From a virus (Duplodnaviria; Heunggongvirae; Uroviricota; Caudoviricetes): a stretch of DNA of 6,771 nt. Of the stretch, positions 1 to 6,771 are shown in pieces. Within the stretch, counting starts at the first letter, position 1; each line of letters begins with the position of its first letter. Where the stretch lies: IMG/VR virus record IMGVR_UViG_2778261503_000003, positions 1-6,771 of that record; one strand, written 5' to 3'. Under the pieces are notes generated by a model. That model was not told where the DNA came from and made no database searches. It worked only from the letters and a program-made list of their open reading frames with translations. Both the position numbers and the translations under genes were made by a program.

Positions 1-77
1 AGCTGATAGAAACAGAAGCCACTGGAGCACCTCAAAAACACCATCATACACTAAATCAGTAAGTTGGCAGCATCACC
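1..77 (-). mobile_element. IS1 terminal fragment: inverted-repeat end plus the first codons of insA; the element continues beyond the window start
   Basis: Reverse complement of 1-77 reads GGTGATGCTGCCAACTTACTGATTTAGTGTATGATGGTGTTTTTGAGGTGCTCCAGTGGCTTCTGTTTCTATCAGCT, which I recognise as the IS1 left end; the insA GTG start lies at 22 on the minus strand (GTG GCT TCT GTT TCT ATC AGC = M A S V S I S). The match stops abruptly after 77. Confidence 0.85.
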
Positions 78-529
78 TACGTTGTAAATGGTTACAGGTA
101 GCACTTTGTTATTGAGCATGATGCCTGTGTGAGTCAGTGTAAATATACTTTCAGGAGGTAAGAAAGCATCCGATTGATACCAGATTATTAATTTTATTTT
201 ACTCCATATGACTGAAAAAGATATTCCGCATGATGGCTGGATAACTGTATCAATCACAATCCACTTCATTTGGTTTCCTTGTTTATGCCTTGCTGGTGAT
301 GTCCTGAAAAGTATAAATGATATTTTTGAATGTAAACCATAGAGCAGAATTATTTTTCTGATGTTGTTTATTGTTTATTTAAATGCAGGGTGGTTTATAT
401 CTCGTCTTGTAGTTTATCCATGCATATCTGCTTGATAATCAGGTTTTTATTTAAGGTATAGTTTTGTGTTTTTTCTGTATTACATGTCAGGTATTTTAAA
501 GAATTATTTTTCAGATAGTGGAAAGAACC

Positions 530-862: not shown

Positions 863-959
863 CGGCATCATCATAAAAAGTGAGCCAGTCAAATGGAAGG
901 TATCGTTAAACTCACCGGTAGTGTCAGTGGGTCGTCTGAGACGCTTGCATGAGTTATCA

Positions 960-992
960 GAGCCATCAGTAGTTAACTGGTGGCTTTTTTAT
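960..992 (+). terminator. Intrinsic-terminator-like hairpin and T-tract about 35 bp upstream of the holin start; candidate late terminator (tR'-like)
   Basis: Stem 960-969 (GAGCCATCAG) pairs with 977-986 (CTGGTGGCTT) with two G-U wobbles, 7-nt loop, followed by a run of six T. Confidence 0.45.
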
Positions 993-1025: not shown

Positions 1026-1241
1026 ATGGACCAGATGGAAAAAATCACAACAGGTGTGTCATACACCACGTCAGCGGTGGGAACGGGCTACTGGTTCCTG
1101 CAGTTGCTGGACAGGGTTTCCCCGTCTCAGTGGGCGGCAATAGGCGTGCTGGGAAGTCTGCTGTTTGGGCTGCTGACATATCTGACTAACCTGTATTTCA
1201 AAATCAGAGAGGACCGTCGTAAGGCGGCACGGGGAGAGTAA
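1026..1241 (+). CDS. S: Class II holin (pinholin, phage 21 S-like), 71 aa, with dual-start motif
   Basis: [71 protein letters not shown] is near-identical in pattern to S21/EssD as remembered. Two TMDs, the first weakly hydrophobic; Met1 and Met4 give the antiholin/holin dual start; basic C-terminus. The GTG-initiated extension from 921 is rejected. Confidence 0.9.
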
Positions 1242-1245
1242 TTCA

Positions 1246-1590
1246 ATGACTCAAAACTATGAACTGATTGTGAAAGGGATCCGCAATTTTGAGAATACAG
1301 TTACGGTAACTTTAGCGTTACGGGACAAAAAACGCTTTGACGGTGAAATTTTAGACCTGGACATCTCGCTGGACCGTGTTGAAGGTGCCGCGCTGGAGTT
1401 TTATGAGGCAGCAGCCAGAAGGAGCATCAGACAGGTCTTCCTGGATGTTGCTGCCGGGTTATGTGAAGGGGATGAGCAGTCACCGGAAAAGCGCCCCATA
1501 ATTTTAGAGGCGCAGGGTGTGTGGATAACCTACAAAGGAAAACTGCCGGGAAGAATTACTGGTTCACTGAAGACTCCGCCGAAATGGTAA
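1246..1590 (+). CDS. Hypothetical 114-aa soluble protein between holin and endolysin
   Basis: ATG at 1246 lies 5 nt after the holin stop, with GGGGAGAG upstream. No TM segment. No confident family recognition; may correspond to the ydfR-position gene of Qin-type prophages. Confidence 0.55.
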   Translation: MTQNYELIVKGIRNFENTVTVTLALRDKKRFDGEILDLDISLDRVEGAALEFYEAAARRSIRQVFLDVAAGLCEGDEQSPEKRPIILEAQGVWITYKGKLPGRITGSLKTPPKW

Positions 1591-1828
1591 TTTCACCAGC
1601 ATATTTTTCTTCCAGTAATACCGCCAGCCACTTGAAAGAATTTTGTTGTTGCTGGGACCATTTGGGGTTGAGTGATTCAAGCTGGAGCGATGCCAGTGTT
1701 GGTTGCATTTGTTCCTTGGGAATTGAGAATGCCAGATATGAAAATGCGACAGTAAGGGCATTTACATCATCCCGAAGCTTGGAAATGCAGTCGAGCAACT
1801 CCTGTAGAGAAATGGTGCTATTGTCCAT
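1556..1828 (-). CDS. Hypothetical 90-aa protein encoded antisense to the lysis operon
   Basis: Minus-strand ATG at 1828 is preceded by AGAGAGGATTGTTT (GAGG with 7-nt spacing). A candidate -10 TACAAT (plus 1843-1848) and -35 TTGAAT (plus 1868-1873) lie upstream. The 3' end overlaps the 114-aa ORF by 35 bp. The alternative plus-frame ORF 1521..1853 is Cys/Ser-rich and does not look protein-like. Confidence 0.4.
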   Translation of the reverse strand: MDNSTISLQELLDCISKLRDDVNALTVAFSYLAFSIPKEQMQPTLASLQLESLNPKWSQQQQNSFKWLAVLLEEKYAGEITISAESSVNQ

Positions 1829-1933
1829 AAACAATCCTCTCTATTGTATTTAACTATTCCTTGCCTGATTCAACAGGCCGGGACAGATAAACATATCCAG
1901 GGTTCAGAAACCGATAAATCCTGATAAATATCC

Positions 1934-2467
1934 ATGAACGCAAAAATCAGATACGGCCTGTCGGCTGCCGTTCTGGCACTGATTGCCGTCGGTGCGCCTG
2001 CGCCTGATATTCTCGACCAGTTTCTGGATGAAAAAGAAGGTAACCACACAACGGCATACCGCGATGGTTCCGGTATATGGACCATCTGTCGTGGTGCCAC
2101 AATGGTGGATGGTAAGCCCGTCATACCGGGAATGAGGCTGTCGAAGGAAAAATGCGACCAGGTTAACGCTATTGAACGTGATAAGGCGCTGGCATGGGTG
2201 GAGCGCAATATTAAAGTACCACTGACCGAACCACAGAAAGCGGGTATAGCGTCATTCTGTCCCTATAACATTGGCCCCGGTAAGTGTTTCCCGTCGACGT
2301 TTTATAAGCGGCTGAATGCCGGTGATCGTAAGGGCGCATGCGAGGCGATTCGCTGGTGGATAAAAGATGGTGGGCGCGATTGCCGCATACGTTCAAATAA
2401 CTGCTATGGACAGGTTATTCGTCGTGACCAGGAAAGCGCATTAGCCTGTTGGGGGATAGATCAGTGA
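1934..2467 (+). CDS. R: SAR endolysin (T4-lysozyme-like, GH24 family)
   Basis: N-terminal Gly/Ala-rich weakly hydrophobic segment ([17 protein letters not shown]), as in signal-anchor-release endolysins. Catalytic E-x8-D-x5-T arrangement in [16 protein letters not shown]. The stop overlaps the Rz start (GTGA). Confidence 0.9.
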
Positions 2468-3930: not shown

Positions 3931-3995
3931 TATTCCCGCATTAACCATGACCGTAGCCCGACGGGGAATTCCTTCTGCGTGAGTGTGCGGGAATA
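3931..3995. repeat. Perfect 10-bp inverted repeat (TATTCCCGCA / TGCGGGAATA) flanking a 45-bp spacer
   Basis: 3931-3940 and 3986-3995 are exact reverse complements; the spacer contains GAATTCC and G/C-rich CCCGACGGGG. Confidence 0.5.
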
Positions 3996-4100: not shown

Positions 4101-4511
4101 TTAGTGTGGAAACATTTGTGATGTGCTCTGTATGTTTTCAGTAAAGAGTAATGAATTATCAAAGGTATAGTAATATCTTTTTTGTTCGTGGATATTTGTA
4201 ACCCACCGAAAAACTCCTGCTTTAGCAAGGTTTCTTCTGTATTCCTGAAATGTGATCTCTCTGGATTTCAGCTTATTAGAGGTCGTTTCTATAAGATGCC
4301 TATCCTTTGAAAATTTGACAGACACAATGTTTTTTAGGCCCTTTAATAACACTGTATTATCATTTTTTAATACAATATGAACATTCTCTGTGGCTAAATA
4401 GTAAATGTAATGTGAGACATTGTGACGTTTTAGCTCAGAATAAAACCATTGATAGTTTAAATCGTTTCGAACTTTATCAAATATTTGTTTAAAAATGACT
4501 ACCTGATCCAT
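4101..4511 (-). CDS. DUF1398-like protein (YdfO/YbcV-like), 136 aa, AT-rich gene
   Basis: ORF track 4101..4526; the internal ATG at 4511 (MDQVVIFKQ...) has the better SD (GAAGG, 7-nt spacing), while the 4526 ATG has none. Size and position between lysis genes and terminase match the ydfO/ybcV morons of Qin and DLP12. The family label is from memory. Confidence 0.6.
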
Positions 4512-4568: not shown

Positions 4569-4802
4569 TCAATCTGGTCTGACCTGTTTTCTGAGCAATT
4601 CAGTAATGTCACTCTTTTCTTTGTTTGCTTCAGGAGAAACTCTTTTTTCTGAGCACAGTCTCCGGCGGCAGGCTTCAATGACCCAGGCTGAGAAATTCCC
4701 GGACCCTTTTTGATCAAGAGCGATGTTAATTTGTTCAATCATTTGGTTAGGAAAGCGGATGTTGCGGGTTGTTGTTCTGCGGGTTTTGTTCTTCGTTGAC
4801 AT
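4569..4802 (-). CDS. Small ribbon-helix-helix-like protein (YnfO/YlcI-like), 77 aa
   Basis: Basic N-terminus then RNIRFPNQMIEQINIAL...GSGNFSAWVIEACRRRL, which looks like a strand-helix-loop-helix RHH pattern. It lies 57 bp upstream of, and on the same strand as, the DUF1398-like gene. Confidence 0.6.
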   Translation of the reverse strand: MSTKNKTRRTTTRNIRFPNQMIEQINIALDQKGSGNFSAWVIEACRRRLCSEKRVSPEANKEKSDITELLRKQVRPD

Positions 4803-5707: not shown

Positions 5708-6771
5708 ATGATGAGTGCTGTCACAACAGCATTACAGCCCCTGATAAGGGCATTGCCGGTGACGCCAGTTGAATGGGCTGATCAAAATTATTATCTGCCT
5801 AAAGAATCTTCATATGGTGAGGGAGAATGGAAAACGCTGCCGTTCCAGATCGCCATCATGAACAGCATGGGGAATGATCAGATCCGGACTGTTAATCTGA
5901 TTAAATCTGCCCGTGTTGGCTATACAAAGATGTTGCTGGGGGTGGTCGGGTATTTTATTGAGCATAAATCCCGAAACAGTCTGCTTTTTCAGCCCACGGA
6001 TTCTGCCGCTGAAGATTTTATGAAGTCTCACGTGGAGGCGACGATTCGGGATGTTCCCTGCCTGAAAAAACTTTCTCCATGGCTGGGGCGTAAACATCGT
6101 GACAATACTCTCACGCTGAAACGCTTTTCATCGGGTGTGGGCTTCTGGTGCCTGGGCGGCGCTGCCGCCAAAAACTACCGTGAAAAATCCGTGGACGTGG
6201 TCTGCTATGACGAACTTTCCTCGTTCGAACCGGATGTCGAAAAAGAGGGTTCGCCAACCCTGCTTGGGGATAAACGTATTGAGGGCTCTGTATGGCCCAA
6301 ATCCATTCGCGGCTCGACGCCTAAAATCAAAGGCACCTGCCAGATCGAAAAAGCGGCCAACGAGTCGGCGCATTTCATGCGTTTTTATGTGCCCTGCCCA
6401 CACTGTGGGGAGGAGCAGTATCTGAAATTTGGCGATGAATCCACGCCTTTTGGCCTTAAATGGGAGAAGGACAGCCCCGAAAGCGTTTTCTACCTCTGTG
6501 AACATCATGGCTGCGTGATCCATCAGTCTGAGCTTGACCAGAGCAACGGGCGGTGGATCTGTGAAAACACGGGGATGTGGACCCGTGACGGTCTGACGTT
6601 TTTCAGCGCCGCGGATAATGAAATTCCGCCGCCGCGCTCCATCACGTTCCATATCTGGACAGCGTACAGTCCATTCACCACCTGGGTACAGATAGTCTAT
6701 GACTGGCTGGATGCACTGAAAGATCCCAACGGCCTGAAAACCTTTGTGAACACCACGCTGGGCGAGACCTG
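5708..6771 (+). CDS. A: Terminase large subunit (gpA-like), 5' portion; runs off the window end
   Basis: ATG at 5708, 1 nt after the nu1 stop. Translation MMSAVTTALQPL...VEWADQNYYLPKESSYGEGEWKTLPFQIAIMNSMG...FWCLGGAAAKNYREKSVDV...VPCPHCGEEQYLKFGD...FVNTTLGET matches lambda gpA as remembered. Absent from the ORF track only because no stop falls in the window. Confidence 0.95.
   Translation, partial: MMSAVTTALQPLIRALPVTPVEWADQNYYLPKESSYGEGEWKTLPFQIAIMNSMGNDQIRTVNLIKSARVGYTKMLLGVVGYFIEHKSRNSLLFQPTDSAAEDFMKSHVEATIRDVPCLKKLSPWLGRKHRDNTLTLKRFSSGVGFWCLGGAAAKNYREKSVDVVCYDELSSFEPDVEKEGSPTLLGDKRIEGSVWPKSIRGSTPKIKGTCQIEKAANESAHFMRFYVPCPHCGEEQYLKFGDESTPFGLKWEKDSPESVFYLCEHHGCVIHQSELDQSNGRWICENTGMWTRDGLTFFSAADNEIPPPRSITFHIWTAYSPFTTWVQIVYDWLDALKDPNGLKTFVNTTLGET

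Follow-up and report, generated by a model that had tools for sequence, protein, structure and literature searches.

The lysis region and its genes

The window, meaning the whole 6,771-nt stretch of viral DNA analysed here, is the lysis region of a prophage of Escherichia coli CFT073. Its gene order is holin, ydfR, a minus-strand gene at 1556-1828 referred to by the working name X, the SAR-type lysozyme R, and Rz/Rz1. Positions 1200-2000 are 100% identical to E. coli CFT073 (NC_004431.1) and to many other strains. Beyond R the RefSeq annotation continues with an Rz-type lysis protein, a Rha regulator, ydfO and ynfO on the minus strand, and terminase. The genes and associated features at and around X are as follows.

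1026-1241: class II holin (RefSeq annotation), of the phage-21 type according to Pfam
1246-1590, plus strand: ydfR (DUF1327, 114 aa), RefSeq YdfR family, Pfam E 8e-41, convergent with X
1556-1828, minus strand: gene X, 90 aa (Ybl58 / phrog_2411 family; WP_000370546.1), from the ORF, the RefSeq CDS and phrog_2411
about 1587-1864, no strand: stretch absent in phages that lack X, from alignment with vB_EcoS-733R4
1836-1839, minus strand: Shine-Dalgarno GAGG, 7 nt upstream of the X ATG, from sequence and conservation
1934-2467, plus strand: endolysin R (phage lysozyme, 177 aa), Pfam PF00959 and RefSeq, divergent from X

The product of 1246-1590 belongs to DUF1327 (PF07041), scoring 138.6 bits against a gathering cut-off of 25. 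X runs from a minus-strand ATG at 1828-1826 to a TAA stop at 1558-1556, and the distance from its ATG to the start of R is 106 nt. GC content is 0.415-0.455 over 1500-1999, across X, against about 0.50-0.55 on either side, a modest dip. The sole Rfam match in the whole window is a sub-threshold DicF-like one, far from X.

Gene X as a conserved protein gene

RefSeq already lists X as a 'hypothetical protein'. Its Shine-Dalgarno GAGG is invariant in the E. coli phage-type copies, is GAGGAG in a copy found in the iha island (see below), and takes the form AAGGA, AAAGGAG or GGAGG in Citrobacter and Serratia. The arrangement GAGG-N5-9-ATG occurs twice in the window against 4.6 expected occurrences, so the Shine-Dalgarno and ATG alone are not above chance. 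Across viral contigs, all 79 X copies with full flanks keep the ATG, the GAGG and ACAAT, and the ORF is intact in 77. The start, the frame and a length of 89-90 codons are held through eight divergent loci down to 72% nucleotide identity, and the X frame is open in 14 of 14 homologous loci, with protein identity as low as about 30% and with Serratia, Sodalis, Citrobacter and Atlantibacter represented.

The dN/dS in the X frame is 0.23-0.41. This measure fails to separate X from the mirror frame, a plus-strand ORF of 110 codons at 1521-1853; both score 0.15-0.55, the two frames having their third codon positions in common. Stop codons were therefore counted instead, and the mirror frame, open only in this window, holds one to four of them in each of the 13 other loci. 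The idea that the X frame is open by chance or only shadows the mirror ORF, for which the indistinguishable dN/dS values could speak, is almost certainly wrong: it is refuted by a mirror frame broken where X is always open, and it has against it the profile searches, which find relatives of 83-106 residues in other genera, 30-45% identical and annotated on the X strand, and the full-length match to phrog_2411. On these comparisons the minus-strand frame is the one under selection, and X is a real conserved protein gene. By the same token it is conservation, and not the Shine-Dalgarno and ATG, that makes X a gene.

The X protein and its family

X matches the phrog_2411 profile with an E value of 4.3e-59 over profile positions 1-90 of 90, and is a member of that family, which is annotated without a function. 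Distant relatives also match this profile (P0081, 2e-33; P0068, 2.5e-17; P0086, 4.5e-10). The UniRef name for X is Ybl58. The protein is of 10.1 kDa with a pI of 4.4 and no membrane segment. An AlphaFold (AF2) model built with 47 aligned relatives places helices at residues 8-35, 38-52 and 59-76 and a disordered tail at 81-90, with a mean pLDDT of 80; X is thus predicted to be an acidic three-helix bundle. The family as a whole comprises soluble, helical, mostly acidic proteins of 83-106 residues without a Pfam, NCBIfam or PADLOC model.

Searches of X and ten distant homologues against Pfam, NCBIfam and PADLOC gave nothing above noise, and the PADLOC defence-system models gave no family for X at E values up to 1. 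A PDB sequence-profile search with X gave no match. Foldseek searches with the X model returned generic helical matches only, the best at E 1.4 against the PDB and at E 0.14 against the viral structures of BFVD. Literature searches on ybl58, WP_000370546 and DUF1327 returned nothing about gene X, and a paper on Gifsy-prophage resistance proved unrelated to it. At the weakest step of the argument, and as a guess, the most likely function would be that of a cytoplasmic protein-binding modulator acting in trans on a host or phage target.

Distribution and genomic contexts

Of 5426 complete E. coli genomes, 1221, about a fifth, contain X DNA; the workhorse strain BL21(DE3) and the uropathogen CFT073 are among them. 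In NZ_CP053602.1 the counterpart of window positions 1591-1873 spans 1404982-1405264. Relatives at 30-45% identity, none of them named, were recovered by a full HMMER scan and a profile search in Citrobacter, Atlantibacter, Serratia, Sodalis, Chania, Gibbsiella and others. The profile of 47 sequences is too diverse for a locus scan. A scan of the genome collection yielded 9 loci only, and a scan of viral contigs with distant members only gave no match.

In Serratia the orthologue is a core-chromosome gene flanked by dinI and bssS and facing the same way as both; all Serratia loci examined have the order dinI-X-bssS, as does an unclassified Enterobacterales metagenome-assembled genome (MAG). 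Judged from these genome comparisons, the family is shown to be vertically inherited in Serratia. These orthologues have 30-39% identity to X, the same length and the same predicted helices, and have in common with it a core of L11, L12, I15, A28, F29, Y31, L32, F34, E51 and F65. They differ from X in being chromosomal, vertically inherited and co-oriented with their neighbours, and they have neither the CCCTGG block described below nor a convergent partner. The family is thus kept in the Serratia core genome, yet it has no name, domain model or paper. Relatives in Sodalis and in a metagenomic lineage occupy other chromosomal neighbourhoods.

The prophage copies lie in several positions. In prophages of E. 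coli and E. ruysiae, X is placed between ydfR and R. In phiSTEC1575-Stx2k it follows S-ydfR and lies ahead of a second, unrelated lysis cassette. In Citrobacter prophages, copies are immediately upstream of two different holins, and in Atlantibacter and metagenomic prophages X lies within tail clusters, where its neighbours are the tape-measure, M and L tail genes. Each of the six prophage contexts seen has X oriented opposite to the late genes. Released phages that carry X are Chlobot, 783R2 and phiSTEC1575-Stx2k. In 59 genomes an intact copy, 72% identical in nucleotide sequence, is found upstream of iha and divergent from it, in an island where ydfR is a stop-containing remnant and R is reduced to about ten codons. 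A further copy lies next to an autotransporter gene on an IncF plasmid.

X is missing from the same slot in some close relatives. In vB_EcoS-733R4 and its relatives, which have no X, R starts 63 nt after ydfR, and in the Qin prophage of K-12, also without X, ydfR overlaps rrrQ. About three quarters of the E. coli genomes that match the ydfR region have no X. Taken together, comparison of the loci shows a family that is mobile between chromosomes and prophages, and that lambdoid prophages of three genera (Escherichia, Citrobacter, Atlantibacter) have acquired at differing positions.

Candidate expression signals upstream of X

The ATG at 1828, the GAGG 7 nt from it, the TACAAT hexamer and the 35-nt overlap with ydfR all lie where the initial annotation had placed them. 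That annotation also credited X with a promoter of its own, with TACAAT as the -10. The candidate signals upstream of X are as follows.

1843-1848, minus strand: TACAAT, the -10 candidate of the initial annotation, conserved as (T/G)A(C/T)AAT, 3 nt from the Shine-Dalgarno, no -35 at 16-18 nt
1863-1879, minus strand: leader hairpin GCCTG-TTGAAT-CAGGC, about 10-12 nt after the 13-mer block
1890-1902, minus strand: conserved block CCCTGGATATGTT, holding a -10-like TATGTT at 1895-1890
1912-1917, minus strand: possible -35 TTATCG, 16 nt upstream of TATGTT, 3 of 6 matches, weak

The Shine-Dalgarno of the initial annotation is confirmed, its promoter is not: a sigma-70 consensus scan of 900-2600 found no site, and TACAAT has no usable -35, the best being TTGAAT at a spacing of 19 nt. 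Moreover, TACAAT ends 3 nt before the Shine-Dalgarno, and transcription beginning about 7 nt past the hexamer would leave the Shine-Dalgarno out of the transcript, so that the two elements cannot both work as had been described. An A/T-rich hexamer directly 5' of the Shine-Dalgarno is present in all X copies (TAAATT or TTTAAA in other genera, TATAAT in the iha copy). TACAAT may serve translation initiation as an A/T-rich element, or it may act as a second, weak promoter.

The block CCCTGGATATGTT lies farther upstream. As the 13-mer CCCTGG(A/T)TATG(A/T)T it is carried by 94 fetched loci, a single time in each, upstream of X on the X strand; loci from Citrobacter, Atlantibacter and Stx2 phage 86 are among them. 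In a phage without X it is altered to CCACGGACAGGTT. The TTATCG candidate -35 is TTATCA in the iha-island copy and is not conserved in Citrobacter or Atlantibacter. The TATGTT within the block is the better-placed promoter candidate, and it predicts a start at about 1884 and a leader of 55 nt that opens with the hairpin. Readings of the upstream regions as a LexA box or as sigma-E or sigma-54 promoters were rejected by eye, spacings or key bases being a misfit.

An equivalent of the leader hairpin, with an 8-bp CGYCAGYG/CRCTGGYG stem, is found in the Citrobacter, Atlantibacter and metagenomic copies, and Stx2 phage 86 has an 8-bp hairpin at the equivalent place in its leader. In six non-E. coli sequences, 97.9% of cells are paired, one pair is compensatory, and five G-U cells can pair on the X-sense strand alone. 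A shuffle control of this hairpin was not significant, 91 of 500 shuffles scoring at least as high as the real sequences, and its covariation is at most suggestive.

Downstream hairpin and predicted transcript

One further feature lies beyond the 3' end of X.

1487-1513, minus strand: terminator-like hairpin GCGCCTC-(9 nt)-GGGGCGC followed by TTTT, 42 nt past the X stop and inside the ydfR coding sequence

This hairpin, which folds at z = -2.1, was missed by the terminator scan, the loop limit there being 8 nt. Its loop is long and it has four U's only. In the iha island, where ydfR is a pseudogene, the hairpin is kept with a change that perfects the stem (GAGGCGC), and in Citrobacter a related stem carries a U-tract. 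It is also found in the ydfR of a phage without X and may for that reason belong to ydfR and not to X.

The conserved block, the leader hairpin and the terminator-like hairpin together suggest a transcript of about 400 nt, from about 1884 to 1487. X would accordingly offer a compact experimental target, consisting of a 10-kDa protein, a predicted RNA start at about 1884 and a predicted end at about 1487.

X as a probable accessory cassette of the lysis region

Overall, the best explanation of the locus is probably that X is an autonomous small protein gene, a reverse-oriented accessory cassette (moron) between ydfR and R of a phage-21-type lysis cassette, with its own transcript and expressed in the lysogen. 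In this scheme the cassette would make its own monocistronic mRNA of about 400 nt, transcription starting in the block CCCTGGATATGTT, proceeding through the leader hairpin and the Shine-Dalgarno and ATG, and ending at the hairpin and U-tract at 1513-1487. X would be expressed in the lysogen, with the late operon switched off. In lytic growth it would be the strong oncoming Q-dependent late transcription that silences X, rather than X controlling R, and the X protein would act in trans, probably by binding another protein.

Presence or absence of X at the same locus among close phages and a base composition that differs, modestly, from the surroundings are both observed, and the contexts of X are moron hallmarks, hard to reconcile with a device for regulating R. 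A lysogen-expressed moron protected from the late operon was one option in the initial annotation. The comparative evidence agrees with it, namely the presence/absence pattern, the reversed orientation in six prophage contexts, the GC dip, the Shine-Dalgarno, the block and the terminator-like hairpin; expression in the lysogen is a step that we infer. X is in this sense probably an ordinary kind of object, a moron, already annotated as hypothetical.

Morons as a class were reportedly defined for HK97/HK022 by Juhala, Hendrix and colleagues. The bor gene of phage lambda, a small accessory one next to the lysis genes, faces against late transcription, and its product is an outer-membrane lipoprotein with a known serum-resistance phenotype. 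X resembles lambda bor and the morons in being small, in lying by lysis genes on the anti-late strand and in being present in some related phages and not in others. By analogy, a promoter and terminator of its own and expression from the prophage would also be expected. Unlike bor, X is modelled as a soluble, acidic three-helix protein, without a signal peptide or known phenotype. It also differs in lying between ydfR and R and not after Rz, and in having a 3' end that overlaps the late neighbour.

Overlap with ydfR and convergent partners

The 35 nt common to X and ydfR (1556-1590) encode the conserved YdfR tail ...ITGSLKTPPKW. Changes in the overlap among E. coli copies, as read from the alignment, are synonymous for this tail, with a TAA, TAG or TGA stop, and the same changes alter the X tail, which reads ISAESSVNQ, ISVESSENQ, ISADSSENP and others. 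The X tail in the overlap is the part that is disordered in the AF2 model. Since the changes spare YdfR and alter this disordered tail, the overlap reads as the X frame running into ydfR to the next stop. Under the accessory-cassette scheme it would be a by-product, encoding the unconstrained C-terminal tail of X, with the YdfR tail as the conserved partner.

The pattern recurs in other prophages. In E. coli, two Citrobacter prophages, Atlantibacter and a metagenomic prophage, the 3' end of X overlaps a convergent late-strand ORF by 4-35 nt, and these partner ORFs end in ...ITGSLKTPPKW, ...KITGSLRAPIKL, ...IFGDLKKPPSY and ...IYGELMKPVC. All five prophage contexts examined at the X 3' end thus have an overlap with a YdfR-like tail, which hints at a functional link that a plain moron leaves unexplained, and is a small further lead.

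X and its convergent late-strand gene, whether the YdfR tail or small 'Y' ORFs, could on these grounds form a functional two-gene module. In one possible variant the X protein antagonises, or mutually excludes, a late protein ending I-x-G-x-L-x-x-P-x-x, and the 3' overlap would give reciprocal transcriptional or antisense coupling. The best pairwise value, E 7e-4 between YdfR and the Citrobacter partner over the tail, fits such a module, as does a report that K-12 YdfR binds the RNase E catalytic domain and possibly RNA (PMC13232886). The module is nonetheless doubtful. The X copies of Serratia, Sodalis, the iha island and the plasmid have no such partner, and most of the E. coli genomes matching the ydfR region, as given above, do without X. 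The similarity among partner ORFs is short, two of three pairwise BLASTP comparisons among them giving no match, and a shared recombination junction could explain the association.

A more elaborate proposal, which must be considered unlikely, is that of a portable two-gene switch, in which X is made in the lysogen from a conserved promoter-leader module with a 5' hairpin, is shut off by late transcription, and counters, or prepares the cell for, a YdfR-type late protein. If true, this would amount to prophage-encoded control of host RNA decay.

A weaker version of the switch concerns only the leader, and it comes from Stx2 phage 86. Its gp06 (phrog_1853) is a minus-strand ORF in the same ydfR-R slot and in the same orientation as X, and has the same leader, namely CCCTGGATATGTT, a hairpin, and then AGAGGATT-N4-ATG. 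Unlike X, gp06 encodes an unrelated protein, and ydfR is there a 268-aa form without an overlap. Homology between X and gp06 was rejected at an hhalign probability of 0.2%. Because the same leader precedes the unrelated gp06, the X leader of block, hairpin and Shine-Dalgarno is read as a module that carries different cargo. In this weaker version, the CCCTGGWTATGWT-hairpin-Shine-Dalgarno leader would be a reusable expression socket for swapped cargo ORFs, X here and gp06 in Stx2 phage 86. A leader common to unrelated cargo in one slot may indicate how passenger genes swap in lambdoid lysis cassettes.

The unlikely reading of antisense control of R

The initial annotation had also proposed antisense or collision-based control of R. 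In that reading, R expression and lysis timing would be governed either by X transcription running against the late operon or by its RNA pairing with the late mRNA, and the ORF is secondary. Geometry favours it: X is convergent with late transcription, any X transcript would be complementary to late mRNA over at least 1556-1836, and the DNA upstream of X overlaps the region before the R ATG, the -35 candidate at 1917-1912 being 17-22 nt from the R start. The reading is nevertheless very unlikely. X is under purifying selection as a protein, and its family is found without an adjacent endolysin at the Serratia dinI-bssS locus, in tail clusters, in the iha island and on the IncF plasmid; with contexts so varied and selection on the protein, the locus has no conserved tie to R through an RNA-borne function. 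The candidate X starts at about 1836 and about 1884 lie downstream of the R ATG (1934) on the minus strand, so that an RNA from these predicted, not mapped, starts would be complementary neither to the R initiation region nor to the R coding sequence. Related R genes follow ydfR with or without X, and Chlobot, 783R2 and phiSTEC1575-Stx2k, which carry X, are released phages.

The known cis-antisense RNAs of phages provide a further comparison. P22 sar, acting on ant, and lambda OOP, acting on cII, are short, non-coding and effective as RNA, and they span either the initiation region or the 3' end of their targets. X resembles them in being transcribed against a phage operon, with an RNA complementary to phage mRNA. 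It differs from both in encoding a conserved protein, in having an RNA that is not predicted to reach the R initiation region, and in belonging to a family tied to no single target. As a real, selected and independently organised gene, X removes a tempting but unsupported story, that of antisense control of lysis.

X 3′ end and its convergent ORFs

The 3′ end of X, the minus-strand gene between ydfR and the endolysin gene R, overlaps a convergent ORF of the late strand in four different prophage settings. Positions in the window and in comparison loci (L numbers) are:

Window 1556-1590: overlap of the X 3′ end with the convergent ORF
L013 5239-5430, minus strand: convergent ORF, X 3′ overlap
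L016 5261-5476, minus strand: convergent ORF, X 3′ overlap
L028 4239-4955, minus strand: convergent ORF, X 3′ overlap
L036 1221-1361, minus strand: convergent ORF, X 3′ overlap

The ORFs converging on X end alike, in the motif I-[TFY]-G-[SDE]-L-[KRM]-x-P-x-x-stop; M(T/S)L(E/D)xxVExLE is common to the N-termini of three. The tail motif is present in YdfR of the CFT073 type, whereas the C-terminus of K-12 YdfR differs. YdfR, encoded by the neighbour of X (window 1246-1590, plus strand), has at least four variants that differ at the C-terminus, with lengths of 103, 114, 116 and 268 aa. Binding of K-12 YdfR to the RNase E catalytic domain, and its co-purification with RNA, were reported recently (PMC13232886).

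A 110-codon plus-strand ORF mirrors X at window 1521-1853, has third codon positions in common with it and displays an equally low dN/dS. This mirror ORF was rejected as a gene and is regarded as a shadow ORF, because it is open only in the window and contains stops in all other homologues.

Leader and X-family genes in other settings

In Stx2 phage 86 the ydfR-R slot is occupied by gp06 (phrog_1853), a minus-strand ORF unrelated to X yet preceded by the same leader as X, consisting of CCCTGGATATGTT, a hairpin, AGAGGATT and ATG (L010 2177-2274 versus window 1826-1902, both minus strand). TTTTT follows this hairpin in phage 86, which therefore looks like a leader terminator there.

Intact X homologues are also known outside any prophage lysis cassette:

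L005 1446-1718, minus strand: homologue adjoining iha
L004 2460-2729, minus strand: homologue on IncF plasmid p04IncF, adjoining an autotransporter gene

The former lies divergently upstream of iha, a siderophore receptor/adhesin gene, and was found in 59 genomes, with identity of at least 99% throughout. dinI and bssS flank an X-family gene in the core chromosome of Serratia species, and likewise in that of an unclassified Enterobacterales MAG:

L011 5001-5282
L019-L021 4001-4285
L029-L035, X ORF start 3968-3974

A strong SD precedes the gene at this locus, and its upstream region has a conserved GGAAC...CTGTATTTAAC pattern, to which no sigma factor could be matched.

Lysis cassette and other features of the window

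Window 959-987, plus strand: 12-bp hairpin, then TTTATTGTTG
Window 1026-1241, plus strand: holin
Window 1934-2467, plus strand: R

The holin N-terminus, MDQMEK, has two Met codons three codons apart (71- and 68-aa products), as does the phage 21 pinholin, and the hydrophobic N-terminus of R resembles that of a signal-anchor-release (SAR) endolysin. The cassette thus looks like the pinholin/SAR-endolysin type, going by sequence and a Pfam name. The hairpin, about 40 nt 5′ of the annotated holin start, resembles an intrinsic terminator on the late strand ahead of the lysis genes.

Besides X, the late region holds further reverse-oriented passenger genes:

Window 1-269, minus strand: IraM-type anti-adaptor gene, upstream of the holin
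Window 4101-4511 and 4569-4802, minus strand: ydfO (DUF1398) and ynfO, between Rha and terminase

A weak DicF-like Rfam match at 6154-6183 (minus strand; 20 bits, E 0.77; gathering score 48), within the terminase large-subunit gene, is most likely due to chance.
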